The notes under the pieces are model-generated. The model was given only the letters and a program-made list of their open reading frames with translations. It ran no database searches and was not told the origin of the DNA. A stretch of DNA of 64,000 bases from NCBI RefSeq assembly GCF_013167455.1, contig NZ_CP038328.1. One strand, given 5' to 3'. The stretch is from Escherichia coli O157:H7. GTDB taxonomy: Bacteria; Pseudomonadota; Gammaproteobacteria; Enterobacterales; Enterobacteriaceae. This document shows positions 13,891-57,049 of the stretch, one piece after another (position 1 is the stretch's first letter; each line of letters opens with the position of its first letter). A program made the position numbers and the translations under genes.

Positions 13891-13960
13891 GTCTGTTCCA
13901 GTGTTGCCATACTTATCTTAGTGAATGCAATACTTCCAATCTATATCTTCCGTCAGAATG

Positions 13961-13978
13961 TGTAAACGGGGTTTTACA
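13961..13978. promoter_or_regulatory. TyrR box upstream of aroG
   Basis: TGTAAACGGGGTTTTACA matches TGTAAA-N6-TTTACA, about 70 bp upstream of the aroG start. Confidence 0.6.
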
Positions 13979-14205
13979 CTATGAACGGATTAATCCTGGA
14001 ATTAGCAAGAAAAACGCCAGATTGTCGCGAAAAACGAGATCTCTCCTACAATTTCTAACTGTAACTCCTTTGTTTGTTAATTATTTCAAGATTCTCTGCT
14101 GGATTTCTTTGCCTGGCTGAAATCTTAAACCAATGCCTTATATTCACCTGCAAATGCACTGTTGGAAGAGGTTATCCGACATAACGACCATAACAGGAGC
14201 ATCCT

Positions 14206-14586
14206 ATGAAAATGACAAAACTGGCCACACTATTTCTGACTGCCACTCTAAGCCTTGCCAGCGGTGCCGCACTGGCTGCCGATAGCGGAGCGCAAACCAA
14301 TAACGGCCAGGCAAACGCCGCAGCTGATGCGGGCCAGGTAGCCCCTGACGCCCGTGAAAATGTCGCGCCAAATAACGTCGACAATAACGGGGTAAATACC
14401 GGTTCTGGCGGCACTATGCTGCATCCGGATGGTTCTTCAATGAACAATGACGGCATGACCAAAGATGAAGAGCACAAGAACACCATGTGCAAAGATGGTC
14501 GCTGCCCGGATATCAATAAAAAGGTACAAACCGGTGATGGCATCAATAATGATGTCGATACCAAAACCGACGGTACCACGCAGTAA
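14206..14586 (+). CDS. ybgS: secreted protein of unknown function YbgS
   Basis: 126 aa ORF with signal peptide and low-complexity N/G/D-rich body; conserved position. Confidence 0.8.
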
Positions 14587-27804: not shown

Positions 27805-28258
27805 AACCAACCAAATATGTTAATTATGTATAAACCATAGATCATTGGTGATTTTATTGTTAATTTATTGTGAAATATTTATGCAACACAATTATTACAA
27901 TGAAAAGGTATAGATAAAAAACCAGTATTTTATTTAACAGAACCGCCTTATCCACTTTTTATAATACCAATTGATTAGAGTAGCCAATTTGTTGCTATTT
28001 TACATAACATATTTTTATCAAAGTTAATTGATTGTTGCCTTTATGAGCACCGACCGTAAGCCCGTTATGTTATTGTTTCATTAGTAATAATCACTTAAAT
28101 GTATCGATGAAACAGGTATGACTTACCGGGAGTGATTGTTTCTGAGTGAACAGAGGCCACTTTCGCCTGATAAATGAAAAATGAGCGATTTTTGCAAGTT
28201 AGTTTTTCTATAGCCGAGTACGCTCAGCGCCTCGCTTGATTACAATGAGGTTGCTGCT

Positions 28259-29203
28259 ATGAGTCCTGATAATATCGGTTCGGCTGTCAATCGCTTCTCA
28301 GGTTGGCCATCTAATGATTCTCTAAAAACAGATAAAGAATCAATGACATCACCCGTGACTGTGCAGGTAATAAAGATGATTGCCGCCATCCTTGACCCAC
28401 ATCGGATAGTCGTTGGAATTGATACACTTTATACAACGCAGCGCGAAACATTTACCTCAGAGAGTCAACAGCTCATTGAATCAGCATTGCAAACACTTCA
28501 TGTGATGAATTTAAATAATCTGGAAACAAATCGCGATGAAGAAAGTCACTATCTGGCTTTTGAATATAACGTTGACACCTCTGACAGAATAACCGTTTCT
28601 GCTTATAATGAAAAAAAACCTGGCTGCTATGGCCAATGTCTTGTAATACAGGATGACGAAACAGACTTATTTAACCTGATAAAAATTAAAATTTTCGAAG
28701 CCAGGCATAATTATGTCGCTCAATTGATGAGCGATCCGGAATTTATGTTCAAATTCAGTTATAGCGCTCAACAAAATAGATTAGAACCTCATCTTCTGGT
28801 TCCCGCTTATTTCCCTCTAAAAACAAACGAACCGGTTACGCAAGAGGATGTACTGTTACTTTATCGTTTCTTTAAAATGAATGATGATTTTAATAAATTA
28901 ACATCAGATGAATACATGAGTATCCTGACACCTCTGATGAAGTGTGAGCGTAGCGTCCACGACAACAACAGGTATGTGACGGGCAAAGATACCCTTCTTC
29001 TGGACTATCCTCCTTCTGGTAACCAGATACATTTCCATGTTTTCCCTGACGAATCAGCAACACTAGTCCTTTATTTTTCAAACAATGACATTGAATGTTT
29101 CGTCTTTGAAAGAGATATTCCGAGCCAGTATCGCTTTTTCAAAATGTTTACCAATCTGGCACTGGTTATAGATCAGTTAACCGAAGCCAATAAAATACTT
29201 TAA
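28259..29203 (+). CDS. hypothetical protein, 314 aa, no recognisable family (AT-rich gene)
   Basis: 945-nt ORF in markedly AT-rich DNA where chance ORFs of this length are unlikely; no motif recognised by eye; start could alternatively be the internal ATG near 28345. Confidence 0.6.
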   Translation: MSPDNIGSAVNRFSGWPSNDSLKTDKESMTSPVTVQVIKMIAAILDPHRIVVGIDTLYTTQRETFTSESQQLIESALQTLHVMNLNNLETNRDEESHYLAFEYNVDTSDRITVSAYNEKKPGCYGQCLVIQDDETDLFNLIKIKIFEARHNYVAQLMSDPEFMFKFSYSAQQNRLEPHLLVPAYFPLKTNEPVTQEDVLLLYRFFKMNDDFNKLTSDEYMSILTPLMKCERSVHDNNRYVTGKDTLLLDYPPSGNQIHFHVFPDESATLVLYFSNNDIECFVFERDIPSQYRFFKMFTNLALVIDQLTEANKIL

Positions 29204-29284
29204 TTTTCTATATATCCCCTATGGCAAATATTGCTAAACAATGCCTGGGGATTAATTTTTATTACTCACGGAAAGATTTAAATA

Positions 29285-29707
29285 ATGATACCATCTCAGA
29301 TCTCTTTCAATACCCTTCCAGTCAATGCAACATACGCTTCAGAGACAACAGTTGACACACAAAAATTCTCTGACATCCTCTACTCAGCGGGGTGTTCCCT
29401 AAAGGATATGGCTTATCTGAGCAGATGTCTGGCATCAATACACCCGACTCTCGCCAAAAACATTTATGAAACAGAAAATCTCAGCGATCAAAAATTACTA
29501 CATATTGATTGCCGTAGTACAAATGAAATCAAGATAAATATCTTTTTTGGTCAACAACGAGAAGGATTAATTGAAATTAATTCTGACACAGTCATTTTTT
29601 CGATATTGTCTTCATTAATTGACTCCGCCATTTCTAAATTTCAACACCAAATCCCCGTTAACGGTTCAGTTAATCGTGAACTATTGTATGAGGATTATAC
29701 TGATTAA
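29285..29707 (+). CDS. hypothetical protein, 140 aa, no recognisable family (AT-rich gene)
   Basis: 423-nt ORF 81 bp downstream of the 314-aa ORF, same strand and similar composition; no signal peptide or motif recognised. Confidence 0.55.
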   Translation: MIPSQISFNTLPVNATYASETTVDTQKFSDILYSAGCSLKDMAYLSRCLASIHPTLAKNIYETENLSDQKLLHIDCRSTNEIKINIFFGQQREGLIEINSDTVIFSILSSLIDSAISKFQHQIPVNGSVNRELLYEDYTD

Positions 29708-30254
29708 ATCCACCCTGTCGCGAAAAATGGCCTGCGTTATTGCCAGACGTAATAAAACCTTTGATTAACGTTACTCATACTGATAGCACCTTCATGTACC
29801 TCTCTTTTTTACGAAAAATTAAAAGAGCTAACTAAGGTCATAATTCGCATGAATCATTAACCATTTGTTATTTTCAACATTATTTTTACATTAAGCAGAG
29901 ATGAATTGCAGTGAAATTCGACTTAAATCTTATGAAATGCATTTACTCATGGCTAAAACCACGTCACAAAAATGCAAATTAGAAGTAGATCACAATTATC
30001 TCAATACATTAAATCAAGTTAATTTTAAAAATTTAACACTCATGACATTAGTTGACATAACACACTGAATTAACATGGAAATTTAAAAACACACTTCAAA
30101 CAATCATTTCCCGAAAGACATTTTGAAAATAGATCAATTGCAACATTACGGTCAGATAAAGACACTCCTGTGATATTAAACCTGTGCCGTTATGAACGGC
30201 CATAAATACGACGTGTGTAACTTATTTTACTCTCTGTCTTACAAAGGATTACCC

Positions 30255-30704
30255 ATGAAGAAAGCAACACTTGTGATTGGCGTTATTGGCGCGGACTGCC
30301 ATGCAGTAGGCAATAAAGTTCTGGACCGCGTTTTTAGCAACCACGACTTCAGAGTCATTAATCTGGGCGTAATGGTCAGCCAGGACGAATATATTGATGC
30401 TGCCATTGAAACTGGCGCTGACGCGATTGTCGTCTCCTCTATCTATGGGCATGGCGATATCGACTGTCTGGGCATGCGCGAACGCTGCATCGAGCGTGGA
30501 CTGGGGGACATCCTGCTCTATGTGGGCGGTAACCTGGTGGTCGGAAAACATGACTTCGCTGACGTGGAAACCAAATTCAAAGAGATGGGATTTGATCGCG
30601 TCTTTGCCCCAAGTCATGACTTAGAAGATGTTTGCCAGCTGATGGCCCACGATATCAACCAACGTCATGACGTTGATACTCGTATTCTTGAAGAGGCTAT
30701 CTGA
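30255..30704 (+). CDS. mamA: glutamate mutase (methylaspartate mutase) S subunit, B12-binding
   Basis: ORF track 30192..30704; ATG at 30255 gives 149 aa [22 protein letters not shown] with the cobalamin-binding DxHxxG motif (DCHAVG); closely resembles clostridial GlmS/MutS. Confidence 0.88.
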
Positions 30705-32092
30705 TGCAAATCGTCTCTGTCGATATTGGATCGACGTGGACCAAAGCAGCCCTCTTTACCCGGGAGGGGGACGCGTTAACGTTGGTTAACCACGTACTGA
30801 CCCCAACCACCACCCATCATCTGGCGAAGGGGTTTTTCTCCAGCCTGAACCAGGTGTTAAACGTAGATAATGCCCTCCCCCTGTTAAACAGCGGTGAGGT
30901 TGCATTGAAGTATTCCTCCTCTGCCAAAGGTGGGCTGGCGGTTGCCGCAATGGGATTGGTGCCTTCTATCACCCTGGAAACCGCGAAAGTAACCGCTCAC
31001 TCTGCGGGTGCTAAAATTGCGCAATATTACGCCTACAAGCTGAACCGCCGTGATATCCAGGCACTGGAAGAAACGCAGCCCGATATTCTCTTGTTCACCG
31101 GCGGCACCGACGGCGGAGAAGAAAGCTACGGACTGAATAACGCCCGTGTGCTGGCAGAATCCAAACTCGACTGCGCCATTATTTATGCCGGAAACCGGGA
31201 TATTCAGGACGAGGTGCAGGAGATCCTCGGGCATAAAGACCTGACCATTGTCGACAACGTTCTGCCCGATCTTGACCATCCGAACCCTGTAGCTGCACGC
31301 CAGGCTATTTGCGACATATTCCTTAAACGCATCGTTAAAGGGAAAGGGCTGGATGTCATTGTTGATAAAACAGGCGAAGAACCAATGCCGACACCATGGA
31401 CGGTCTTTGAACTGGTCAAGGCAATCAGTAACGTCGATCACAGCTGGAAAGAGTTCATGCTGATCGACATGGGCGGCGCAACCACCGATGTTTATTCCGC
31501 CTGTGCCAACACGCTCTCGCCCGACACCGTTTTACACGGCGTACCGGAACCCTTCGTAAAACGGACGGTGGAAGGCGATCTGGGAATGCGCGTCTCGGCA
31601 GTGGTGGTTGGTGAAAGTGCGAAAGAGTTAGTCAATGTGAATTTTGCTCAGCAACCCGCACAGCTGGACGCTTTTTATCATTACCTCCGTCATCTAGTCG
31701 CTCATCCCGACTACTTACCCGCAAATGCAGAAGAGAAATATTTCGATACCGTCCTGGCCGGACTGTGTGTGGGTTATGCCACCGAAAGACATGCGGGCAC
31801 CAAAAAAGAGGTCTGCACCTGCGTCGGCAATGTCGATTTACAGATGGGACGTGACCTGACAACCGTGCGTAAAGTCGTCGGATCCGGCGGATGGCTCTCG
31901 CGTGCCAGTCAGTTCGATATGCATCACTGGTTGAAATACCGCGAGTTAAACGACGACGGTAAACGCATTCTCTTACCGACCGAATTTGAATATTACCGCG
32001 ATTCCCGGGGGCTATTACCACTGCTGGCAAACGTCGCCAGAGTCGATCCGCTGGCCGCCGCGCGCACCAGTATTCAATGCTTAACCCTATAA
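30704..32092 (+). CDS. glmL: glutamate mutase-associated protein GlmL/MutL (actin-like ATPase fold; proposed chaperone/reactivase)
   Basis: 462 aa ORF whose start overlaps the S-subunit stop by 1 nt; lies between S and E subunits as in clostridial operons. Confidence 0.7.
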   Translation: MQIVSVDIGSTWTKAALFTREGDALTLVNHVLTPTTTHHLAKGFFSSLNQVLNVDNALPLLNSGEVALKYSSSAKGGLAVAAMGLVPSITLETAKVTAHSAGAKIAQYYAYKLNRRDIQALEETQPDILLFTGGTDGGEESYGLNNARVLAESKLDCAIIYAGNRDIQDEVQEILGHKDLTIVDNVLPDLDHPNPVAARQAICDIFLKRIVKGKGLDVIVDKTGEEPMPTPWTVFELVKAISNVDHSWKEFMLIDMGGATTDVYSACANTLSPDTVLHGVPEPFVKRTVEGDLGMRVSAVVVGESAKELVNVNFAQQPAQLDAFYHYLRHLVAHPDYLPANAEEKYFDTVLAGLCVGYATERHAGTKKEVCTCVGNVDLQMGRDLTTVRKVVGSGGWLSRASQFDMHHWLKYRELNDDGKRILLPTEFEYYRDSRGLLPLLANVARVDPLAAARTSIQCLTL

Positions 32093-32110
32093 CAATTAAG
32101 GCTGCAATCA

Positions 32111-33556
32111 ATGGAACTTCGAAATAAGAAATTAACCCATGACGAATTCATGACCGAGCGGCAACAGGTACTGAAAACCTGGGAAACCGGCAAGGATGTT
32201 GAAAACTTTGAAGATGGCGTTAAATACCAACAAACCATCCCTGAGCATAAACGTTTCTCTCTTGCGCTGCTGAAAGCAGACAAGGAAGGTAAAACCCTTA
32301 GCCAACCGCGCGCAGGTGTGGCGCTGATGGACGAACACATCGAACTGCTGAAAACACTACAAGAAGAGTGCGATCTGCTGCCAAGCACCATCGATGCATA
32401 TACCCGTCTGAATCGGTACGAAGAAGCGGCTGTAGGGATTAAAAAATCCATCGAAGCCGGAACCTCTAAACTGAACGGTTTACCGGTAGTTAACCATGGT
32501 GTCGCAGCTTGCCGTCGCCTCACCGAAACCCTGCAAAAACCGCTACAGATCCGCCACGGCACGCCAGATGCGCGTCTGCTGGCTGAAATCTCAATGGCCA
32601 GCGGCTTTACCAGTTATGAAGGCGGTGGCATTTCCTACAACATTCCGTATGCCAAACGCGTAACGCTGGAAAAATCGATCCGCGACTGGCAGTACTGCGA
32701 CCGTTTAATGGGGATGTATGAAGAACACGGGATCCGCATCAACCGCGAACCGTTTGGCCCACTAACGGGTACGCTGATCCCGCCGTTTATCTCGCACTCT
32801 ATCGCGATAATCGAAGGCTTGCTGGCGCTGGAACAGGGTGTGAAATCTATCACCGTTGGTTATGGCCAGGTCGGCAGCCTGACGCAGGATGTTGCGGCGA
32901 TCCAGTCTCTGCGTGAACTTGCACACGAATATTTTCAGAGCTATGGCTATACCGACTATGAATTGAGTACCGTGTTTCACCAGTGGATGGGCGGCTTTCC
33001 GGAAGACGAATCGAAAGCGTTCGCTATTATCTCCTGGGGCGCAGCCGTCGCGGGGATGTCTGGTGCCACCAAAGTCATCACCAAAAGTCCGCACGAAGCC
33101 TGGGGTATCCCGACTGCCGCTGCCAACATTCAGGGGCTGAAAGCCTCCCGCCAAATGCTCAACATGGTCAATGAGCAGAAATTCCCGCCGTGCCCTGCGG
33201 TTGAACTGGAAATTGAACTGATTAAGAGCGAGGTTCGCGCGGTACTGAATAAAGTGTTCGAACTGGGTAATGGTGATATTGCGCGCGGAACGGTGCTGGC
33301 ATTTGAAGCGGGCGTACTGGATGTGCCGTTTGCGCCAGCCGCCTGCAACGCGGGCAAAATTCTTCCGGTCCGTGACAACACCGGCGCGATACGCGTACTG
33401 GAAGCCGGAGCCGTTCCATTGCCAAAAGATATTCTCGACCTCCACCACGATTACGTTGCGGAACGCGCACGCTGTGAAGGACGCCAACCGACATTCCAGA
33501 TGGTTGTAGATGACATCAATGCTGTATCCCACAGTAAATTAATAGGAAGACCATAA
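32111..33556 (+). CDS. glmE: glutamate mutase (methylaspartate mutase) E subunit, catalytic
   Basis: 481 aa ORF MELRNKKLTHDEF...QPRAGVALMDEHIELLK...LPSTIDAYTRLNRYEE, closely resembling clostridial GlmE. Confidence 0.9.
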   Translation: MELRNKKLTHDEFMTERQQVLKTWETGKDVENFEDGVKYQQTIPEHKRFSLALLKADKEGKTLSQPRAGVALMDEHIELLKTLQEECDLLPSTIDAYTRLNRYEEAAVGIKKSIEAGTSKLNGLPVVNHGVAACRRLTETLQKPLQIRHGTPDARLLAEISMASGFTSYEGGGISYNIPYAKRVTLEKSIRDWQYCDRLMGMYEEHGIRINREPFGPLTGTLIPPFISHSIAIIEGLLALEQGVKSITVGYGQVGSLTQDVAAIQSLRELAHEYFQSYGYTDYELSTVFHQWMGGFPEDESKAFAIISWGAAVAGMSGATKVITKSPHEAWGIPTAAANIQGLKASRQMLNMVNEQKFPPCPAVELEIELIKSEVRAVLNKVFELGNGDIARGTVLAFEAGVLDVPFAPAACNAGKILPVRDNTGAIRVLEAGAVPLPKDILDLHHDYVAERARCEGRQPTFQMVVDDINAVSHSKLIGRP

Positions 33557-34797
33557 TGAAAATAAAACAGGCTCTGTTCACCGCTGGCTACTCCTCATTC
33601 TATTTCGATGACCAGCAGGCGATAAAAAACGGAGCGGGTCATGACGGCTTTTTTTATACCGGGGAGCCAGTAACACAGGGGTTTAACGCCGTACGTCAGG
33701 CCGGGGAGTGCGTATCGGTACAGTTGATTCTGGAAAACGGCGCGGTCGCCGTAGGTGACTGTACTGCCGTACAGTATTCCGGGGCAGGCGGTCGCGATCC
33801 ACTGTTCCTCGCAGAGCACTTTATTCCGTTCCTCAACGACCATATCAAGCCATTACTGGTAGGCCGCGATGTGGATGCTTTCCTGCCGAATGCCCGTTTC
33901 TTCGACAAATTGCGTATTGACGGCAACTTGCTGCATACCGCCGTGCGCTACGGATTATCACAGGCGCTGCTTGATGCTACCGCGCTGGCAACCGGCCGTC
34001 TGAAAACTGAAGTGGTCTGTGATGAATGGCAGTTGCCACGCGTGGCGGAATCCATTCCATTATTTGGTCAGAGCGGCGACGATCGATATATCGCCGTCGA
34101 TAAGATGATCCTTAAAGGCATCGACGTGCTGCCCCATGCGCTGATTAATAACGTCGAAGAGAAGCTGGGCTTTAAAGGTGAAAAACTGCGCGAATATGTC
34201 CGCTGGTTGTCGGATCGCATTCTAAGCAAGCGCACCAGCGCACGCTACCACCCTACCCTGCACATCGATGTATACGGCACTATCGGTCTGATCTTCGATA
34301 TGGATCCGCTTCGCTGTGCGCAATACATCGCCAGCCTGGAAAAAGAAGCGCAAGGCCTGCCGCTCTACATCGAAGGGCCGGTCGATGCCGGTAACAAGCC
34401 CGATCAAATTCGCCTGCTGACCGCGATTACCAAAGAGCTGACGCGCCTCGGTTCCGGCGTGAAAATTGTGGCCGATGAATGGTGTAACACCTACCAGGAT
34501 ATTGTTGATTTCACTGATGCTGCCAGTTGTCACATGGTGCAAATCAAAACCCCGGATCTGGGCAGTATTCACAACATCGTCGATGCGGTTCTTTACTGCA
34601 ACAGCCACAGCATGGAAGCGTACCAGGGCGGCACCTGCAATGAAACTGATGTCAGTGCCCGCACCTGTGTCCACGTCGCCCTTGCCGCTCGCCCCATGCG
34701 TATGCTGGTAAAACCAGGGATGGGCTTTGACGAAGGCCTCGATATCGTCTTCAACGAAATGAATCGTACTATCGCGCTGTTGCAGGCTAAGGATTAA
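33556..34797 (+). CDS. 3-methylaspartate ammonia-lyase (beta-methylaspartase)
   Basis: 413 aa ORF MKIKQALFTAGYSSFYFDDQQAIKNGAGHDGFFYTGE...VQYSGAGGRDPLFLAE, enolase-superfamily MAL; start overlaps the glmE stop by 1 nt. Confidence 0.9.
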   Translation: MKIKQALFTAGYSSFYFDDQQAIKNGAGHDGFFYTGEPVTQGFNAVRQAGECVSVQLILENGAVAVGDCTAVQYSGAGGRDPLFLAEHFIPFLNDHIKPLLVGRDVDAFLPNARFFDKLRIDGNLLHTAVRYGLSQALLDATALATGRLKTEVVCDEWQLPRVAESIPLFGQSGDDRYIAVDKMILKGIDVLPHALINNVEEKLGFKGEKLREYVRWLSDRILSKRTSARYHPTLHIDVYGTIGLIFDMDPLRCAQYIASLEKEAQGLPLYIEGPVDAGNKPDQIRLLTAITKELTRLGSGVKIVADEWCNTYQDIVDFTDAASCHMVQIKTPDLGSIHNIVDAVLYCNSHSMEAYQGGTCNETDVSARTCVHVALAARPMRMLVKPGMGFDEGLDIVFNEMNRTIALLQAKD

Positions 34798-34800
34798 CAA

Positions 34801-36171
34801 ATGGCTCGTTCTTTTAAAGTCTTATCGCCAACGGCAATCCTCGGGTATGGATTCCCGGAAGAGAGCTTCCGCAAAGCGATGGCAGAATCGCCCGATCTGA
34901 TCGCCGTTGATGCAGGCTCTTCCGATCCAGGCCCCCACTACCTCGGGGCAGGCAAACCGTTTACCGATCGCGCAGGGGTCAAGCGCGATCTGCGCTATAT
35001 GATCACCGCAGGCGTGCAAAATAATATACCGGTGGTGATCGGAACGGCTGGCGGTTCTGGTGCCGCACCACACCTGGAGTGGTGCCGAGAAATAATTCAT
35101 GAGATTGCCCGGGAAGAGCACCTCTCGTTCTCGATGGCGTTGATCCCGGCAGACGTTGACAAAGCCATCGTCCACCAGGCGCTGGATAACGGCAAAATCA
35201 CGGCGCTGGATTTTGTCCCGCCGTTAACCCACGACGCGATTGACGAAAGTACGTATATCGTCGCGCAAATGGGCATCGAACCCTTCCAGCGGGCGCTGAA
35301 AGAACGCGCGCAAGTGGTGCTGGGCGGGCGCGCTTACGACCCGGCCTGCTTTGCTGCGCTCCCGATCATGCAAGGCTTTGATGAAGGTCTGGCGCTGCAT
35401 TGTGGGAAAATCCTTGAATGCGCGGCAATCGCCGCAACGCCCGGCTCAGGCTCTGACTGTGCGATGGGCATCATTGATGACAACGGCTTTACGCTGAAAA
35501 CATTTAATCCGAAGCGTAAATTTACCGAAACGTCAGCAGCTGCACACACACTGTATGAGAAATCCGATCCCTACTTCCTGCCAGGACCTGGCGGCGTGTT
35601 GAACCTGAAAGGCTGCACATTTAAAGCAGTAAATGACGGCGAAGTCTACGTCAGCGGTTCTAAGCATGAAGAAACGCCGTATGCCCTGAAACTGGAAGGT
35701 GCACGACGGGTGGGCTTCCGCTGTCTGACCATCGCCGGAACGCGCGACCCGATTATGATCGCCGGGATCGATAAAATCATCGATGAAGTCAAAACCAGCG
35801 TTTCGCGTAACCTGTCGCTCGACGATGACAGCATTCGCATCAATTTCCACCTGTACGGCAAAAACGGGGTGATGGGAGACCATGAACCGATGCAAACTGC
35901 CGGGCATGAGCTGGGGATTGTCCTTGATGTAGTTGCACCGACCCAGGAAATTGCCAACAGCGTTTGCTCGCTGGTGCGCTCTACCATGCTGCACTACGGC
36001 TATGAAAACCGCATCGCTACCGCAGGTAATCTGGCGTTCCCGTTCTCCCCTTCTGATATCCAGGGCGGGCCGGTATACGAATTTTCCATATATCACCTGA
36101 TTGAAGCCAACGACGCTCTGCGTTTTGATTTCCATATTGAACAGGTGACGCCAGAAGGAGTTCAGGCATGA
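34801..36171 (+). CDS. uncharacterised conserved protein, 456 aa (possibly DUF1446/AtuA-like; assignment from memory, unverified)
   Basis: ORF begins 3 nt after the MAL stop; Gly-rich segment GTAGGSGAAPH; no characterised catalytic motif recognised. Confidence 0.6.
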   Translation: MARSFKVLSPTAILGYGFPEESFRKAMAESPDLIAVDAGSSDPGPHYLGAGKPFTDRAGVKRDLRYMITAGVQNNIPVVIGTAGGSGAAPHLEWCREIIHEIAREEHLSFSMALIPADVDKAIVHQALDNGKITALDFVPPLTHDAIDESTYIVAQMGIEPFQRALKERAQVVLGGRAYDPACFAALPIMQGFDEGLALHCGKILECAAIAATPGSGSDCAMGIIDDNGFTLKTFNPKRKFTETSAAAHTLYEKSDPYFLPGPGGVLNLKGCTFKAVNDGEVYVSGSKHEETPYALKLEGARRVGFRCLTIAGTRDPIMIAGIDKIIDEVKTSVSRNLSLDDDSIRINFHLYGKNGVMGDHEPMQTAGHELGIVLDVVAPTQEIANSVCSLVRSTMLHYGYENRIATAGNLAFPFSPSDIQGGPVYEFSIYHLIEANDALRFDFHIEQVTPEGVQA

Positions 36172-36485
36172 AACAGTCAATTGTCTCACTGGCGCAAGTC
36201 ATTCGTTCGAAAAATGCCGGACCTTACGAACTGGTTTTAGATATTTTATTTAAAACGAAAGAAAACTATGAGCGAGTTAAATCATCAGGGCAATTAACCC
36301 CAGAACTGATTGCACGCTTATATCATGTTGAACCTGACTTTATTCATCGTATTGTCTGGTTTGATCCTTCTAACGCAGTAAAAATCGTCATGCCACGAGA
36401 TATTATCTCCGGGAATGTAGGTGACAATGATGTCTATGGTGCACAGCAACATGCACCTTTATTAAATATGAGTTTCGATTTGTAA
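36168..36485 (+). CDS. uncharacterised small protein, 105 aa (possibly DUF4387-like; unverified)
   Basis: ORF overlapping the preceding gene by 4 nt (ATGA), indicating translational coupling. Confidence 0.55.
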   Translation: MKQSIVSLAQVIRSKNAGPYELVLDILFKTKENYERVKSSGQLTPELIARLYHVEPDFIHRIVWFDPSNAVKIVMPRDIISGNVGDNDVYGAQQHAPLLNMSFDL

Positions 36486-36568
36486 AAATCCGAATACTTT
36501 TAGCCAACTGACATCCCGTCACTTATTGCAGTTCAACACTTCAGCTATTTGTAAGGTTGTAATAGCAG

Positions 36569-36600
36569 GTAGATGCCTGAATCTCTATTCAGGCATCTAC
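36569..36600 (+). terminator. Perfect 14-bp inverted repeat (terminator or operator candidate)
   Basis: GTAGATGCCTGAAT-CTCT-ATTCAGGCATCTAC between the 105-aa ORF and the transporter gene; only a weak T-run follows. Confidence 0.45.
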
Positions 36601-36645
36601 TTCTCCTGATTCTGATTTATCGCCGTGCACCTGATGGAGGAAAAA

Positions 36646-37926
36646 ATGAAGAAAATAAGTTTAACCACGATGATTCTTTTGGCGCTGGTACTTGGAATGA
36701 TTATCGGCGTAGTGCTCAATAACACTGCTTCACCGGAAACCGCAAAACTCTATGCGCAAGAAATATCGATATTCACGACGATTTTCTTACGACTGATAAA
36801 AATGATTATCGCTCCGTTAGTGGTCTCTACCCTGGTGGTAGGTATTGCTAAAATGGGCGATGCCAAAGCCCTTGGTCGTATTTTTTCTAAAACACTCTTT
36901 TTATTTATTTGCGCCTCATTGCTGTCAATTGCCTTAGGCTTGATAACGGTAAATTTCTTCATGCCAGGTACAGGAATTAATTTTGTTGCACACGGTGCCG
37001 AAACCACCGGAGTGGTCGCGGCAGAACCCTTTACGCTAAAAGTATTTATTTCGCATGCTTTCCCCACCAGCATTGTCGATGCCATGGCGCACAATGAAAT
37101 TTTGCAAATCGTGGTGTTCTCAATTTTCCTCGGCTGTAGCCTGACGGCGATTGGCGAGAAAGGCAGCGCCATCGTTCACGCCTTAGATTCGCTGGCACAT
37201 GCCATGTTAAAGCTCACTGGCTACGTCATGCTCTTCGCTCCCCTGACCGTATTCGCTGCTATTTCAGCATTGATTGCTGAACGAGGACTGGCAGTTATGG
37301 TGAGCGCCGGGATCTTTATGGGTGAATTTTATTTCACCATGTTATTACTTTGGGTACTGCTTATCGGTCTGGCCATCGTTTATGTCGGCCCCTGCATCAG
37401 ACGCCTGACCCGCGCCCTTTCGGAACCCGCCCTGCTGGCATTTACCACATCCAGTTCTGAAGCGGCTTTTCCGGGAACGCTTGAAAAACTGGAGCAATTT
37501 GGCGTTTCCCCCAAAATTGCCAGCTTTGTCTTACCCATTGGCTACTCATTTAATCTCGTTGGATCAATGGCCTACTGCTCCTTCGCCACAGTTTTCATCG
37601 CCCAGGCCTGCAATATCCATTTATCCATCGGTGAGCAAATCACCATGCTGTTGATCCTGATGTTGACCTCGAAAGGAATGGCTGGCGTACCACGCGCCTC
37701 AATGGTGGTTATCGCCGCCACGCTCAACCAGTTCAATATTCCGGAAGCGGGGCTGATCTTGCTGATGGGCGTTGATCCGTTCCTTGATATGGGGCGTTCC
37801 GCGACAAACGTCATGAGCAACGCAATGGGCGCTGCGATGGTGAGTCGGTGGGAAGGCGAACATTTCGGCGAGGGCTGTCGGGGTAAAGCATTAAAACCCA
37901 ATGAATCGAACGTTGCTCTGCCCTGA
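36646..37926 (+). CDS. dicarboxylate/amino-acid:cation symporter (GltP/DctA family), probable glutamate or C4/C5-dicarboxylate uptake
   Basis: ORF track 36625..37926; ATG at 36646 is preceded by GGAGG; multi-TM protein MKKISLTTMILLALVLGMIIGVVLNN. Confidence 0.75.
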   Translation: MKKISLTTMILLALVLGMIIGVVLNNTASPETAKLYAQEISIFTTIFLRLIKMIIAPLVVSTLVVGIAKMGDAKALGRIFSKTLFLFICASLLSIALGLITVNFFMPGTGINFVAHGAETTGVVAAEPFTLKVFISHAFPTSIVDAMAHNEILQIVVFSIFLGCSLTAIGEKGSAIVHALDSLAHAMLKLTGYVMLFAPLTVFAAISALIAERGLAVMVSAGIFMGEFYFTMLLLWVLLIGLAIVYVGPCIRRLTRALSEPALLAFTTSSSEAAFPGTLEKLEQFGVSPKIASFVLPIGYSFNLVGSMAYCSFATVFIAQACNIHLSIGEQITMLLILMLTSKGMAGVPRASMVVIAATLNQFNIPEAGLILLMGVDPFLDMGRSATNVMSNAMGAAMVSRWEGEHFGEGCRGKALKPNESNVALP

Positions 37927-38033
37927 GGGGGATCTTAAGCAATCAGAAGCCAATGACTACGCATTTTTATAAGCCGGATCATGAAGTTAGACGGCAATTA
38001 AGTAACACTAACGTTTAAGGTGAAAAGTGAAAT

Positions 38034-39686
38034 ATGTCCAAACCATTTATCTGGCAAGAACCGTTTCTACAAAATAAAGACGGTACAGAATATACATTAA
38101 TTAGCGATCAACATATTACAGTAACGGAATTAGACGGCGAAGAAGTGATAAAAATCGCTCCTGAAGCATTAACGCTGCTTGCCCGGCAGGCATTTTATGA
38201 AGCCTCTTTTTTCTTACGTTCCGCTCATTTGCAACAGGTCGCCAGCATTCTTAACGATCAGCAGGCCAGCAGTAATGATAAATACGTTGCGTTGCAGTTA
38301 TTACGTAATGCTGAAGTCTCAGCAAAAGGGGTATTACCCAACTGTCAGGATACCGGCACCGCAACTATTGTTGCCAGTAAAGGGCAACAGATATGGACCG
38401 GAGGTAACGACGCCGAAGCCTTAAGTAAAGGCATTTACAGTACTTTCCAGGAAAATAATCTGCGCTTTTCACAAAATGCGCCGCTGGATATGTATACCGA
38501 AGTCAATACGCAAACCAATCTCCCGGCGCAGATTGATATCAGCGCTGTCGCTGGTGATGAGTACCATTTTCTCTGTGTTAATAAAGGGGGCGGCTCCGCC
38601 AATAAAGCCGCGCTTTATCAGGAAACCAAATCCTTATTGCAACCAGAAAAACTGACCGCATTTTTAATCGAAAAAATGAAATCGCTGGGCACCGCTGCCT
38701 GCCCGCCTTACCACATCGCCTTTGTCGTCGGAGGGCTTTCAGCCGATCAAACCTTAAAAATTGCCAAGCTGGCCTCAACGAAATATTACGACAATTTGCC
38801 CACCAGCGGAAACGAGCAGGGACAAGCATTCCGTGATATTGAGCTGGAAAAAGTGTTGCTCGAGGCCAGTCAGCAATTTGGTATTGGTGCGCAATTTGGG
38901 GGTAAATATTTCGCTCATGATATTCGCGTCATTCGTCTGCCGCGTCACGGTGGCTCTTGCCCGATAGCTATGGCGCTCTCCTGTTCTGCCGATCGCAATA
39001 TCAAAGCAAAAATTAACAAACACGGTATCTGGCTGGAAAAACTCGAACACAATCCGGGGCAATATATTCCAGCCTCACTGCGGGAAGAAAATCACGCGCA
39101 ACATGTACAACTGGATCTAAACCGTCCGTTGCGTGACGTGATGCAGGATCTCGCCAGATTACCAGTAGGCACCCGCGTGTCGTTAAGTGGTCCCATCGTA
39201 GTGGCGCGCGATATCGCCCACGCCAAAATAAAAGCGCGGCTGGATAGCGGCGAACCGATGCCGGAGTACCTGAAGCATCATATTGTCTATTACGCTGGCC
39301 CGGCGAAAACACCGGAGAACATGGCCTGCGGTTCACTGGGTCCAACCACGGGCGGTCGAATGGACGGTTATATCGATACCTTCCAGGCGGCTGGCGGCAG
39401 TCTAGTGATGTTATCGAAAGGTAACCGCAGCCAGCAGGTCACCGATGCCTGTCACAAACATGGCGGCTTCAATCTGGGAAGTATTGGCGGTGCAGCTGCG
39501 TTACTGGCGCAAGAATATGTCAAAAGTCTGCGTTGCCTGGAATACCCGGAGCTGGGTATGGAAGCGGTGTGGATGATGGAAGTGGAAAATCTGCCCGCAT
39601 TCATCCTGGTAGATGATAAAGGCAATAATTTCTTTAGTCAGTTTGAGCAGCAACACCGCTGCGCCAGTTGCCCTGCGGGACATTAA
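38034..39686 (+). CDS. fumD: class I (Fe-S) fumarate hydratase paralogue, FumD-type mesaconase/fumarase
   Basis: 550 aa ORF closely similar to FumA/FumB over its length ([38 protein letters not shown]), located in the glutamate mutase cluster. Confidence 0.85.
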
Positions 39687-39695
39687 GGAAAATGA

Positions 39696-40298
39696 ATGGA
39701 AGCGCGAATTTCAACTGAACGGCATGTGCAGCGCCAACAGAAATTGAAGGAACAGGTCGATACGCGCGTCGCGGCGGCGATAGAGAAAAAAGGGATCTTG
39801 ATTGTTTTCACCGGCAACGGCAAAGGGAAATCCACTGCCGCGTTTGGTACTGTGACGCGCGCGGTGGGTCATGGCAAAACGGTGGGGGTTGCGCAGTACA
39901 TCAAGGGGCAATGGGACAACGGCGAATACAACCTTCTCCAGCCGCTGGGGGTTGAGTTTCATATTATGGGAACCGGTTTTACCTGGGAGACACAGAACCG
40001 GCAAGCGGATATCGACGCGGCGAAAGAGGTCTGGTCGGAAAGCAAACGGATGCTGGCTGACAAGCGTTACGACTTAGTGGTGCTTGATGAGCTGACCTAT
40101 ATGCTGGCTTACCATTATCTGGATACCGAAGAAGTGATCGCTTCTCTGCAAAACCGCCCGGCACAACAAAGTGTCATTGTCACCGGACGCGGTTGCCACA
40201 GTCAGATATTAAAAATGGCAGATACGGTCAGCGAAATCCGCCCCGTCAAACATGCTTTTGATAACGGCATTCAGGCCCAGCCGGGTATCGACTGGTAA
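39696..40298 (+). CDS. cob(I)alamin adenosyltransferase, BtuR/CobA family
   Basis: 200 aa ORF with P-loop FTGNGKGKSTAAFG and strong resemblance to E. coli BtuR. Confidence 0.85.
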   Translation: MEARISTERHVQRQQKLKEQVDTRVAAAIEKKGILIVFTGNGKGKSTAAFGTVTRAVGHGKTVGVAQYIKGQWDNGEYNLLQPLGVEFHIMGTGFTWETQNRQADIDAAKEVWSESKRMLADKRYDLVVLDELTYMLAYHYLDTEEVIASLQNRPAQQSVIVTGRGCHSQILKMADTVSEIRPVKHAFDNGIQAQPGIDW

Positions 40299-40301
40299 TA
40301 A

Positions 40302-40334
40302 CTGCGCCTGGCATCCCGCCAGGCGCAGGTTTTA
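40302..40334. terminator. Bidirectional hairpin between convergent adenosyltransferase and LysR genes
   Basis: CTGCGCCTGG-loop-CCAGGCGCAG followed by GTTTTA; overlaps the LysR stop codon. Confidence 0.5.
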
Positions 40335-41237
40335 CATCTCCTGCGGTACGACCGATTTCGCCAGCAACCATTCACGAAATTGCTGCAAGTGCGGTGAGTC
40401 AGACTTCTCTTCCTGCCACGTCATAATAAAACGATTACCGGTACGAATAGGCACATCACAGGGAATCACCATATCGCCACTATCCAAATCATGTTGAATA
40501 GCGAAACGTGGTAACAGCGCCACGCCGAGATTAGAGCGCACGGCGGCAATCAGCATTGAAAGCAAATCGAAACGTGGTCCGTTGTTGACCAGCGGACTGC
40601 TAACGCCAGATAAAGCAAACCACTCTTCCCAGCCAGTAATACGGGTGCTTTGATGCAGAAGTGGTAACTCAGTAAGCAGTTCTGCCACTGACAGTTTTTG
40701 ATCGGACATTGCAAGCAAACTGCCGCTGCATACCGGCAAAATCTCCTCTTCAAAGAGATATTCTACTTCCGCCCAGGGCGCGCAAAAATTTTCGCGCATA
40801 ATGACAGCATCGTACTCCCGATTAAGAAAATCGCCGTTATTAGCTAAAGAATGAATATTAACAATAATATCGGGATGTAACTTTGTGAATTCATGTAAAT
40901 TTGGGATTAACCAGTGGGTACTAAAAGTAGGATTAACGGCAAGTTCAATAACCTGAACCGTAGGCTGCCAGGTCATAATGGTATTGGTATCGCGTTCCAG
41001 CTTATTTAATGTTTCTTTTACTATCCCCAGGTAATACTTCCCTGTATCATTAAGAAAAATGCGTTTTTTAGAGTGTGAAAATAACGGAGTACGTAAAAAT
41101 TCCTCCAGCGCACTTACTTGTCTGAATACTGCACTTTGGGTTAACGCTAACTCCTCTGCCGCTCTGGTATAACTTTCATGACGTGCGACGACCTCAAAAG
41201 TCACCAGCAGTTCCGTTTTAGGTATTTTCCCTCGCAT
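40332..41237 (-). CDS. LysR-family transcriptional regulator
   Basis: 301 aa ORF with N-terminal HTH (LLVTFEVVARHESYTRAAEELALTQSAVFRQVSALE) and C-terminal substrate-binding domain. Confidence 0.85.
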   Translation of the reverse strand: MRGKIPKTELLVTFEVVARHESYTRAAEELALTQSAVFRQVSALEEFLRTPLFSHSKKRIFLNDTGKYYLGIVKETLNKLERDTNTIMTWQPTVQVIELAVNPTFSTHWLIPNLHEFTKLHPDIIVNIHSLANNGDFLNREYDAVIMRENFCAPWAEVEYLFEEEILPVCSGSLLAMSDQKLSVAELLTELPLLHQSTRITGWEEWFALSGVSSPLVNNGPRFDLLSMLIAAVRSNLGVALLPRFAIQHDLDSGDMVIPCDVPIRTGNRFIMTWQEEKSDSPHLQQFREWLLAKSVVPQEM

Positions 41238-54589: not shown

Positions 54590-57049
54590 ATGGATGCCGT
54601 GAATATTTATCGACTCTCTGTTCTTTCCTGTCTGGCAATGGTAACCCCTCCTGCGCTGACAGCTGAATTTAACCTTAACGTTCTCGATAAGTCGATTCGG
54701 GATAGCGTTGATATTTCGTTGCTCAATCAAAAAGGCGTCGTAGCTCCCGGCGATTACTTTGTTAGTGTTACGGTTAATAATAATAAAATCAGTAATGGGC
54801 AACAAATTCGCTGGCAAAAATCTGGCGATAAAATTATTCCTTGTATCAATGAATCGCTGATCGAACTCTTCGGACTTAAATCTGACTTTCGTAAAAAATT
54901 ACCGGCAATAAAAGAATGTGTCGATTTTAGTGTCTTCCCTGAAATCATCTTTACTTTCGATCAGGCAAATCAACAGCTCAATATTACAATCCCGCAGGCA
55001 TGGCTGGCGTGGCATTCAGAAAACTGGACGCCACCCTCAACGTGGAATAACGGTATTCCTGGCTTCCTGATGGATTACAACCTGTTTGCCAGCACTTATC
55101 GCCCACAAAGCGGCAGCAGCAGCAACAACCTGAACGCCTATGGCACCACGGGCCTCAACGCCGGGGCATGGCGTCTGCGCAGCGATTATCAGCTTAGCCA
55201 GTCCGATAGCGGCGACAACCGTGAACAATCTGGGGCGATTTCACGGACCTACCTGTTCCGCCCGTTACCGCAAATAGGTTCCCGATTAACCCTGGGCGAA
55301 ACCGATTTTAGCTCTAACATTTTTGATGGTTTCTCCTATACCGGTGCGGCGTTAGCCAGCGACGATCGAATGCTCCCCTGGGAGTTACGCGGCTACGCGC
55401 CGCAAATCAGCGGCATCGCACAGACTAACGCCACGGTCACGATAAGCCATTCTGGTCGCGTGATTTACCAGAAAAAAGTTCCACCAGGCCCATTTATTAT
55501 TGATGACCTGAATCAGTCAGTGCAAGGTACACTGGATGTCAAAGTGAGCGAAGAAGATGGACGGGTGAATAACTTCCAGGTTTCAGCGGCCTCTACCCCG
55601 TTCCTGACGCGTCAGGGCCAGGTGCGCTATAAACTGGCTGCCGGTCGCCCGCGTTCCTCTATGTCGCACCACACCGAGGATGAAACCTTCATTAGCCATG
55701 AAGTCTCCTGGGGAATGCTCTCCAACACTTCACTATATGGCGGCATGCTTCTCGCAGGCGATGACTATCGTTCCGGCGCGCTGGGTATTGGGCAAAATAT
55801 GCTCTGGATGGGGGCGCTGTCGTTTGACGTGACCTGGGCCGACAGCCATTTTGATACCCAACAGGATGAGCAGGGTTACAGCTACCGCTTTAACTACAGC
55901 AAACAGGTTGATGCGACCAACAGCACCATCTCATTGGCAGCCTATCGCTTCTCCGATCGCCATTTTCACAGCTACGCTAACTACATTGATCACAAATACA
56001 ATGACGCCGACGCGCAGGATGAAAAGCAAACAATCAGCCTCTCCTTCGGTCAGCCTATTACTCTGCTGAATCTTAATCTCTACGCCAACATCCTGCATCA
56101 GAGCTGGTGGAATGCGGATACCTCCACCACGGCCAACATTACCGTCGGTTTTAACGTCGACATTGGCGACTGGAAAGATATTTCTGTCTCGACCTCGTTC
56201 AACACCACCCATTATGAAGATAAAGATCGCGACAACCAGATTTACTTTTCGATCTCCTTACCGATTGGGGAAAGTGGTCGACTGGGTTATGACATGCAGA
56301 ACAACAGTAATACTACCACCCACCGCATGTCGTGGAACGATACCCTGGATGAACGAAACAGTTGGGGAATGTCGGCTGGAATACAATCCGATCGCCCGGA
56401 TAACGGTGCGCAGGTCAGCGGCAATTACCAACACCTCAGTTCGGCGGGGGAATGGGATCTGACCGGAACCTATGCCGCCAATGATTACACTTCCGCCAGT
56501 GCCAGTTGGAGCGGCTCGTTTACCGCGACTCAACATGGCGCGGCATTCCATCGCCGCAGTTCCACCAATGAACCACGCCTGATGGTCAGCACCGACGGCG
56601 TGGGCGATATTCCGATTCAGGGCAATATTGACTACACCAACCGCTTTGGTATTGCCGTGGTACCGTTTGTTTCCAGCTACCAGCCTACGACGGTGGCGGT
56701 CAATATGAACGACTTGCCTGACGGCGTTACCGTTTCCGAAAACGTGGTGAAAGAAACCTGGACCGAAGGCGCCATCGGCTTTAAATCGCTGGCGTCCCGC
56801 GCCGGGAAAGATCTCAACGTCATTATCAGCGATGCTAACGGGCATTTCCCGCCGCTCGGTGCCGATGTTCGCCAGGCTGAAGGCGGTGTCAGCGTCGGGA
56901 TGGTTGGCGAAAACGGTCACGCATGGCTGAGTGGGGTCGATGAAAATCAACAATTTACCGTGCACTGGGGCGACCAGAAAACGTGTGCCATTCATCTGCC
57001 GGAACATCTGGAAGATGTGACTAAGCGCCTGATTTTACCCTGTCATTAA
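54590..57049 (+). CDS. ybgQ: fimbrial outer-membrane usher
   Basis: 819 aa ORF of typical usher size and composition, between subunit and chaperone genes. Confidence 0.8.
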   Translation: MDAVNIYRLSVLSCLAMVTPPALTAEFNLNVLDKSIRDSVDISLLNQKGVVAPGDYFVSVTVNNNKISNGQQIRWQKSGDKIIPCINESLIELFGLKSDFRKKLPAIKECVDFSVFPEIIFTFDQANQQLNITIPQAWLAWHSENWTPPSTWNNGIPGFLMDYNLFASTYRPQSGSSSNNLNAYGTTGLNAGAWRLRSDYQLSQSDSGDNREQSGAISRTYLFRPLPQIGSRLTLGETDFSSNIFDGFSYTGAALASDDRMLPWELRGYAPQISGIAQTNATVTISHSGRVIYQKKVPPGPFIIDDLNQSVQGTLDVKVSEEDGRVNNFQVSAASTPFLTRQGQVRYKLAAGRPRSSMSHHTEDETFISHEVSWGMLSNTSLYGGMLLAGDDYRSGALGIGQNMLWMGALSFDVTWADSHFDTQQDEQGYSYRFNYSKQVDATNSTISLAAYRFSDRHFHSYANYIDHKYNDADAQDEKQTISLSFGQPITLLNLNLYANILHQSWWNADTSTTANITVGFNVDIGDWKDISVSTSFNTTHYEDKDRDNQIYFSISLPIGESGRLGYDMQNNSNTTTHRMSWNDTLDERNSWGMSAGIQSDRPDNGAQVSGNYQHLSSAGEWDLTGTYAANDYTSASASWSGSFTATQHGAAFHRRSSTNEPRLMVSTDGVGDIPIQGNIDYTNRFGIAVVPFVSSYQPTTVAVNMNDLPDGVTVSENVVKETWTEGAIGFKSLASRAGKDLNVIISDANGHFPPLGADVRQAEGGVSVGMVGENGHAWLSGVDENQQFTVHWGDQKTCAIHLPEHLEDVTKRLILPCH

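Follow-up and report, generated by a model that had tools for sequence, protein, structure and literature searches.

A two-subunit, non-Cit-type citramalate lyase predicted in the methylaspartate pathway cluster of Escherichia coli O157:H7

Gene content of the cluster

We analyzed a window of 64,000 nt from the chromosome of Escherichia coli O157:H7, which was fully collinear with the O157:H7 strain PA20. Between positions 30255 and 40298, the gene order was glmS-glmL-glmE-mal, an AtuA/DUF1446 gene, a DUF4387 gene, a gltP-like gene, fumD, and cobO, followed by a convergent LysR-family gene (Table 1). The segment 30255-39686 runs from the annotated start of glmS to the stop of fumD. The products GlmS, GlmL, GlmE, methylaspartate ammonia-lyase, and class I fumarase all scored above curated NCBIfam equivalog cut-offs. 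Two ORFs in the cluster were left without an NCBIfam name; they matched the Pfam families AtuA (PF07287) and DUF4387 (PF14330), respectively. The island was present in 1135 of 5426 complete E. coli genomes (approximately one fifth) and in most O157:H7 strains.

Table 1. Features of the glutamate mutase cluster and its borders (coordinates in the 64-kb window).
Feature	Coordinates	Strand	Evidence
glmS, glutamate (methylaspartate) mutase small B12-binding subunit	30255..30704	+	NF002612 252.7 bits, cut-off 110
glmL, glutamate mutase accessory/reactivating protein	30704..32092	+	NF040745 510.7 bits, cut-off 475; TIGR01319 898 bits
glmE, glutamate mutase large subunit	32111..33556	+	TIGR01503 866 bits, cut-off 390
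mal, 3-methylaspartate ammonia-lyase	33556..34797	+	TIGR01502 542.7 bits, cut-off 286
cmlA, predicted large subunit of non-Cit-type citramalate lyase (AtuA/DUF1446 family), 456 aa	34801..36171	+	PDB 9ERQ/9EVF chain A
cmlB, predicted citramalate lyase small subunit (DUF4387), 105 aa	36168..36485	+	9erq_B; PF14330 E 2.9e-39
Dicarboxylate/amino acid:cation symporter (GltP/DctA family)	36646..37926	+	302-314 bits vs DctA and GltP models, below equivalog cut-offs; annotated symporter
fumD, class I fumarase serving as the mesaconase that converts mesaconate to (S)-citramalate	38034..39686	+	NF011921 1287 bits, cut-off 1060
cobO, cob(I)alamin adenosyltransferase	39696..40298	+	NF004637 295.6 bits, cut-off 185
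G+C-rich hairpin between convergent cobO and LysR genes	40302..40328	.	Stem 11 pairs, 9 G-C
LysR-family regulator	40332..41237	-	Subfamily-level LysR/GcvA-like matches

The annotated glmS start is preceded by AAAGGA; the mechanical ORF begins at 30192, with the profile match starting at residue 22, which coincides with 30255. The symporter, named GltP by Kronen and Berg (2015; PMC4682846), presumably takes glutamate as its substrate. For purified O157:H7 FumD, the same authors reported a mesaconase kcat/Km of 2e6 M-1 s-1. The hairpin downstream of cobO is likely a bidirectional terminator closing the unit; the total of terminator-like sites in the region was no higher than in shuffled sequences, and this hairpin is suggestive by position only. 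We presume that the LysR-family gene, which adjoined the cluster in 36 of the 80 loci compared below, regulates it. Upstream of glmS, a promoter scan returned no candidate on the plus strand, and the two low-G+C ORFs found there had no match with PADLOC, NCBIfam, or Pfam.

Absence of Cit-type lyase and CoA-transferase genes

A profile search gave no match to CitD, CitE, CitF, or CoA-transferase models among the cluster ORFs, the 456-aa ORF had no BLASTP match to E. coli CitF or CitE (E about 1), and the window annotation contained no citrate/citramalate lyase or CoA-transferase gene. On this point, the original prediction was confirmed. A CitDEF-type enzyme combines an alpha subunit, CitF (acetyl-ACP:citrate transferase), with a beta subunit, CitE (HpcH/HpaI-type citryl-ACP lyase), and neither was found among the cluster ORFs. 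Genes for the acyl-carrier gamma subunit CitD, for CitX and CitG (prosthetic group), and for CitC (acetylation) were absent from the window; the citCDEFXG operon of the same genome lies outside it, approximately 110 kb away. The citramalyl-CoA route was likewise not represented: the profile search of the cluster and the annotation of the whole window revealed neither a CoA-transferase nor an HpcH-type citramalyl-CoA lyase. Most enterobacteria lack genes for these two enzymes (Kronen and Berg, PMC4682846).

Matches of the two ORFs to a crystallised citramalate lyase

In a PDB sequence search, the 456-aa ORF matched 9erq_A/9evf, a chain named "Citramalate lyase, subunit A (cmlA)", across residues 1-456 (E 1.3e-291). 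The full-length, ungapped alignment contained 420 identical residues of 456 (92.1%) and 36 substitutions. The 105-aa ORF matched 9erq_B, "Citramalate lyase, subunit B (cmlB)" (E 5e-57), with 88 of 104 residues identical (~85%) and 16 substitutions, again at full length and ungapped. Both entries also came up in a fold search: 9evf, released on 2025-10-08, bears the title "Citramalate lyase - ADP - pyruvate complex", and 9erq, released on 2025-10-22, the title "Citramalate lyase - AMPPNP - citramalate complex". The product of a Klebsiella michiganensis gene was 100% identical to 9erq_A.

The match of CmlA to Pfam AtuA (PF07287) was significant but weak and partial (E 1.5e-17, 64 bits, residues 63-394); O157 CmlA thus belongs to a divergent AtuA subfamily. 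Of the 229 columns showing at least 90% conservation across 76 homologues, it retained 228. Residue 169 is Arg in O157 CmlA (R169, G169R) and Gly in 73 of the 76. Both ORFs were intact and full length; 3 nt separate mal from cmlA, and the ATG of cmlB overlaps the TGA of cmlA as ATGA.

The original prediction had seen no citramalate lyase and had therefore ended the pathway at citramalate. The first statement held for CitD/E/F-like ORFs and failed for the cluster as a whole, which very probably encodes CmlAB at 34801-36485; the proposed end point is therefore not supported, given the identities of 92% and ~85%. The prediction had itself named the discovery of such an enzyme in the cluster as its refutation, and the AtuA-family and DUF4387 ORFs very probably supply it. 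The alternative offered alongside it, that the uncharacterised ORFs handle citramalate, proved the better one, as both match the CmlA/CmlB structures.

Support from the literature came from a 2026 preprint in which Raoultella planticola cmlAB, a gift of the Berg laboratory, enabled E. coli to make acetyl-CoA from mesaconate; an acetyl-CoA auxotroph grew on mesaconate in a plasmid-dependent manner, and isotope labelling confirmed the result. Our literature search did not find a primary description of the Cml enzyme, and the enterobacterial lyase is not mentioned in the 2025 itaconate paper from the Berg laboratory or in Buckel's 2021 review. As neither a primary Cml paper nor an assay of O157 CmlAB was found, the functional label rests on the names given by the depositors, the ligands in the entry titles, and one preprint using the genes. 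The function of O157 CmlAB is predicted from the conserved gene order and from how closely its subunits resemble the crystallised proteins (92% and ~85% identity).

Gene neighbourhood across genomes

The comparison of gene order covered 80 genome loci whose CmlA homologues were 60-99% identical, spread from Enterobacterales to Riflebacteria, Spirochaetes, Lentisphaerae, Holophagaceae, and others. The gene directly upstream of cmlA was mal in 77 loci, and the gene directly downstream was cmlB in 77 loci. CitC, CitD, CitE, CitF, CitX, and CitG were detected by tblastn within 10 kb of cmlA at none of the 80 loci. CmlA homologues below ~55% identity occurred in other gene contexts, and cmlAB was also found without glm/mal, for example in Accumulibacter. 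At a 50% identity threshold, the AtuA+DUF4387 pair as a whole falls into ~2,400 clusters, the majority of them with unrelated gene neighbourhoods. A search for Mal homologues gave at least 120 proteins; the matches listed were all >71% identical and included no clostridial Mal. In Dictyoglomus, a DUF1446 gene adjoins mal, possibly together with cit genes (Kronen and Berg, PMC4682846).

Proposed pathway

On gene content, the cluster very probably encodes the complete methylaspartate pathway from glutamate to pyruvate, acetate, and NH3, with the non-clostridial CmlAB as its last step; glutamate mutase, methylaspartase, mesaconase, and citramalate lyase are all represented, the lyase by homology. 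Glutamate would be taken up by the GltP-like symporter and converted to (2S,3S)-3-methylaspartate by the adenosylcobalamin-dependent GlmS/GlmE, with GlmL expected to reactivate the mutase and CobO to adenosylate cobalamin, supplying the cofactor. Mal would deaminate 3-methylaspartate to mesaconate, which FumD, with its activity shown for the O157:H7 enzyme, would hydrate to (S)-citramalate. The two-subunit CmlAB would then cleave citramalate to pyruvate and acetate, dispensing with the acyl-carrier prosthetic group and the CitC/X/G helpers.

The orthologue binds AMPPNP with citramalate and ADP with pyruvate, so ATP has a part in catalysis or in its control. Going by the entry titles, we tentatively suggest that CmlAB might use ATP to activate citramalate, turning its C4 carboxylate into an acyl phosphate, although we consider this rather doubtful. 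By analogy with the thioester of Cit-type lyases, the acyl phosphate may stabilise the acetate-derived carbanion, and the enzyme may either release acetyl phosphate or regenerate ATP while bound, leaving the net reaction "direct". If ATP activation is true, AtuA+DUF4387 would stand for a broad class of C-C lyases that depend on a nucleotide and act on 3-hydroxy-3-alkyl acids, the tentative AtuA step of terpene degradation would join the same class, and the activity would have been beyond the reach of the nucleotide-free assay of 2015. The depositors of 9ERQ/9EVF probably already know the role of the nucleotide.

Glutamate is an abundant intestinal amino acid. If the pathway reaches pyruvate and acetate, the gut pathogens that carry the island are genetically equipped to ferment it, given cobalamin. 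The finding itself is already known: the missing step was reported in 2015, and the enzyme entered the PDB, with its name, in 2025. The two genes are currently labeled "AtuA family", "DUF4387", or, wrongly, "3-methylaspartate ammonia-lyase", and with such labels automated pathway reconstruction keeps reporting a false gap at citramalate.

Activity data and alternative explanations

The pathway could end at citramalate after all, with O157 CmlAB inactive or acting on another substrate and citramalate excreted or otherwise used. Kronen and Berg (2015; PMC4682846) found O157 extracts to be without detectable citramalate lyase activity, strain ATCC 700728 did not grow anaerobically on glutamate with or without cobalamins under all conditions they tried, and G169R is unusual for the family. 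However, the cells used for the extracts did not express the cluster, Mal activity being absent too, and the assay mixture contained no nucleotide (PMC4682846). The intact ORFs with their high identity to the crystallised enzyme, the near-complete retention of conserved CmlA columns, and the translational coupling of cmlA and cmlB within the operon further make this explanation very improbable.

We regard cleavage of citramalate by an enzyme encoded elsewhere, whether CitDEF, isocitrate lyase, or methylisocitrate lyase, as very improbable. The citCDEFXG operon is available in the same genome, and citrate lyase has a homologue in the clostridial citramalate lyase (PMC4682846). Yet extracts high in citrate lyase, isocitrate lyase, or methylcitrate-pathway activity had citramalate lyase activity of <1 mU/mg (PMC4682846); the citrate lyase suggested by the original prediction had thus been tried in the same strain background with a negative outcome. 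The cit genes are also missing from the surroundings of cmlA at the 80 loci compared, whereas mal is its nearly constant neighbor.

That the AtuA/DUF4387 pair is an accessory factor for the mutase or Mal, or a second methylaspartate ammonia-lyase, as several database names of homologues and its tight adjacency to mal might suggest, is scarcely credible: the pair does not resemble the Mal family, Pfam gives AtuA only for the large ORF, Kronen and Berg saw no basis for the name (PMC4682846), the solved complexes (9ERQ/9EVF) hold citramalate and pyruvate, and cmlAB occurs without glm/mal, as in Accumulibacter.

Comparison with known systems

The closest known system is the CmlAB of Klebsiella/Raoultella, which shares with O157 the two-subunit composition (a 456-aa subunit of the AtuA family with a 105-aa DUF4387 subunit) and the order glmS-glmL-glmE-mal-cmlA-cmlB. 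O157 differs by 36 + 16 substitutions, with R169 at a Gly-conserved position. The Klebsiella/Citrobacter clusters carry ~1 kb of extra DNA between the transporter gene and fumD, with room for one gene, possibly the glsA listed for enterobacterial clusters by Kronen and Berg (PMC4682846).

The clostridial citramalate lyase (CitDEF-like; Buckel and Bobi 1976, cited in PMC4682846) has the same net reaction, splitting (S)-citramalate into pyruvate and acetate, and occupies the same last-step place beside glm/mal/mesaconase genes (PMC4682846). CmlAB is unrelated to it in sequence and fold, has no acyl-carrier subunit or CitC/X/G maturation genes, and, in the Cml structure, binds an adenine nucleotide.

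AtuA shares with CmlA the family PF07287 and a proposed reaction class, in which a tertiary 3-hydroxy acid loses acetate (PMC4847356). Its substrate, however, is a CoA ester, the AtuA activity itself is tentative, and the protein consists of one longer polypeptide (615 aa in Thauera; PMC4847356), whereas the DUF4387 part is a separate gene in O157. Finally, E. coli CitDEF, encoded in the same genome, is like CmlAB a lyase that frees acetate from a tertiary hydroxy acid, but it is unrelated in sequence, distant on the chromosome, and inactive on citramalate by experiment (PMC4682846).

Gene Content and Location of the Island

The island is flanked by cydA and sucD, within the gene order pgl/mod/gal, tol-pal, cydAB, island, sucDCBA, sdh, gltA, and fimbrial operon. 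The interval 30255–39686 singled out in the original prediction runs exactly from the glmS start to the fumD stop. Only 3 nt separate the mal stop from the cmlA start, and cmlA and cmlB overlap at an ATGA junction. Many E. coli O157:H7 chromosomes matched a 10.5-kb query (window 30000–40500) at 100% identity, and this stretch is carried by 1135 of 5426 complete E. coli genomes. O157:H7 strain PA20 is collinear with the entire 64-kb window; in its record, the fimbrial usher gene after gltA (about 54590–57049, + strand) is annotated as a pseudogene with an internal stop.

Genes of the island and the evidence for their assignment (window coordinates)
Feature	Position	Strand	Evidence
glmS	30255–30704	+	NCBIfam equivalog model above cut-off
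glmL	30704–32092	+	NCBIfam equivalog model above cut-off
glmE	32111–33556	+	NCBIfam equivalog model above cut-off
mal, methylaspartate ammonia-lyase	33556–34797	+	NCBIfam equivalog model above cut-off
456-aa ORF (cmlA)	34801–36171	+	NCBIfam: unnamed; Pfam AtuA; PDB 9ERQ/9EVF chain A
105-aa ORF (cmlB)	36168–36485	+	NCBIfam: unnamed; Pfam DUF4387; PDB chain B
GltP/DctA-type symporter gene	36646–37926	+	
fumD, class I fumarase	38034–39686	+	NCBIfam equivalog model above cut-off
cobO, adenosyltransferase	39696–40298	+	NCBIfam equivalog model above cut-off
LysR-type regulator gene	40332–41237	convergent to island genes	

The cobO and LysR genes converge, and exactly between their stop codons lies an 11-bp G+C-rich hairpin (40302–40328), which is likely a two-way terminator. 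Upstream of glmS, two + strand ORFs annotated as hypothetical (28259–29203, 314 aa; 29285–29707, 140 aa) are located in a patch with a G+C content of 36.7% (28–30 kb), compared to about 51% in the surroundings. Neither ORF had a match in Pfam, NCBIfam, or PADLOC, and the island as carried by Citrobacter, Klebsiella, or Salmonella has no counterpart of window 27805–30240.

Identity of the Two Unnamed ORFs

The original prediction held that the cluster lacks a CitE/CitF-like lyase or CoA-transferase, and this was borne out: no cluster ORF matched the CitD, CitE, CitF, or CoA-transferase models in an NCBIfam profile search, the 456-aa protein had no BLASTP match to CitF or CitE of the same genome, and the citCDEFXG operon of this genome is about 110 kb away, beyond the window. 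Its headline, that the pathway stops at citramalate, was refuted by the prediction's own standard, as cluster ORFs match citramalate lyase subunits in the PDB. A lyase is present, though not of the Cit type. Since the uncharacterised ORFs had been named as a possible answer, the interpretation was supported in that part.

In the PDB sequence search, residues 1–456 of the larger ORF aligned without gaps to chain A of 9ERQ and 9EVF (E 1.3e-291), named "Citramalate lyase, subunit A (cmlA)" by the depositors. The 105-aa ORF aligned to chain B, "Citramalate lyase, subunit B (cmlB)" (E 5e-57). We consider this match decisive for predicting the identity of both ORFs from sequence. Identity to the crystallised proteins was 420/456 (92.1%) for the large subunit and, counted from the alignment, 88/104 for the small one. 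Pfam matches were to AtuA (PF07287, weak, E 1.5e-17, residues 63–394) and DUF4387 (PF14330, E 2.9e-39), respectively. The overall fold of the lyase protein has no other PDB counterpart. Among 76 homologues, 229 columns were conserved at ≥90%, and O157 CmlA keeps 228 of them; the lone exception is R169 (codon at 35305–35307), which is Gly in 73 of the homologues, including the crystallised protein.

CmlA homologues (P0002, P0060, and P0072) are called "3-methylaspartate ammonia-lyase" in public records, a family with which they have nothing in common, and the RefSeq name for CmlA is now "AtuA family protein". Both names leave the function unstated.

Conservation of cmlA Loci

A scan at one genome per species yielded 80 loci with CmlA homologues (60–99% identity), which were screened by tblastn using the window proteins and E. 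coli CitC/D/E/F/X/G as queries. The loci originated from Enterobacterales, Betaproteobacteria (Aromatoleum, Azoarcus, Propionivibrio, and Paludibacterium), Telmatospirillum, Riflebacteria, Lentisphaerae, Spirochaetes, Erysipelotrichia, Aminicenantes, Holophagaceae, and Oligoflexales. The mal gene was immediately upstream of cmlA in 77 loci, and cmlB immediately downstream, likewise in 77. Two of the three loci missing cmlB are contig ends (L005 and L068); in L064, cmlB was undetected despite about 3 kb of contig after cmlA. glmE was detected in 72/80 loci and a FumD-like class I fumarase in 49/80, while tblastn detected CitC/D/E/F/X/G in none of the 80. Riflebacteria and Spirochaetes possess a compact unit, glmS-glmL-glmE-mal-cmlA-cmlB-fumD.

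In loci L009–L033 (Klebsiella, Citrobacter, and Enterobacter; about 13100–14250 in locus coordinates), the match starts of the symporter and FumD are about 2.4–2.6 kb apart, compared to about 1.4 kb in E. coli, leaving space for one more gene, which the O157 island lacks. This is possibly the glutaminase gene glsA, listed by Kronen & Berg for enterobacterial clusters (PMC4682846). At the DNA level, loci L006 ("MAG: Collinsella sp.") and L005 ("MAG: Citrobacter sp.") share 98–99% identity with the E. coli O157 island and are probably E. coli contigs placed in the wrong genome bin.

Proposed Pathway and Earlier Functional Evidence

Glutamate would be converted to methylaspartate by GlmSE, with support from GlmL and CobO, and then to mesaconate and ammonia by Mal. 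FumD, whose activity has been measured, would hydrate mesaconate to (S)-citramalate, which CmlAB, judging from its orthologue, would cleave into pyruvate and acetate. CmlA binds ATP or ADP beside substrate and product, according to the titles of the nucleotide complexes (AMPPNP-citramalate, 9ERQ; ADP-pyruvate, 9EVF). These titles fit ATP as co-substrate, catalytic cofactor, or effector; one option is that ATP activates the carboxylate by forming an acyl phosphate, which would replace the thioester of Cit-type lyases.

Kronen & Berg purified E. coli O157:H7 FumD in 2015 and identified it as a mesaconase/fumarase, concluding that these bacteria are therefore able to turn glutamate into (S)-citramalate (PMC4682846). 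They found no conditions for cluster expression, and citramalate cleavage was negative in all extracts high in citrate lyase, isocitrate lyase, and methylcitrate-pathway activities (PMC4682846). Because no nucleotide is listed for their assay mixture and the cells used to prepare the extracts lacked methylaspartase activity (PMC4682846), we infer that this negative result has no bearing on CmlAB. The original prediction re-derived, from sequence alone, the question left open in 2015.

No primary description of Cml turned up in the paper library that was searched. In a 2026 preprint using Raoultella planticola cmlAB, an E. coli acetyl-CoA auxotroph carrying a cmlAB plasmid grew on mesaconate and did not grow without the plasmid, and labelling showed that mesaconate carbon reaches acetyl-CoA; the net reaction is described as direct cleavage, and ATP goes unmentioned. 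Others have already identified the citramalate lyase CmlAB, named it, and deposited it. The island is a real and biologically neat case of non-orthologous replacement of citramalate lyase, though the discovery belongs to them.

Scope of the Citramalate Lyase Assignment

The wider AtuA family comprises 2381 clusters at 50% identity (E 1e-3 or better). In all four contexts inspected for homologues of 41–55% identity, the DUF4387 partner was present and mal absent, and neighbours included M20 peptidases, amidohydrolases, a DcuC transporter, and a two-subunit class I fumarase. In view of these contexts, the citramalate lyase label seems reliable down to about 60% identity, a clade to which the window belongs, and not beyond.

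A cmlA-cmlB pair (63–68% identity) was also observed in Accumulibacter MAGs (L085/L086, 10001–11679), between a glycoside hydrolase gene and rpoC/rpoB, and in Holophagaceae (L084, 9651–11340). No glm or mal gene was detected within 10 kb of these pairs, so the lyase is not always linked to glutamate mutase. In the more distant loci L087 (8001–15596; 55% identity) and L090 (8001–11294; 41%), the AtuA and DUF4387 pair is followed by an M20 peptidase and, in L087, also by an amidohydrolase, a DcuC-type transporter, and a two-subunit class I fumarase. This context looks like a different, undescribed pathway, which may also end in the cleavage of a hydroxy acid. The reaction tentatively proposed for AtuA in terpene degradation is of the same type as citramalate cleavage: acetate is split off a tertiary hydroxy acid.
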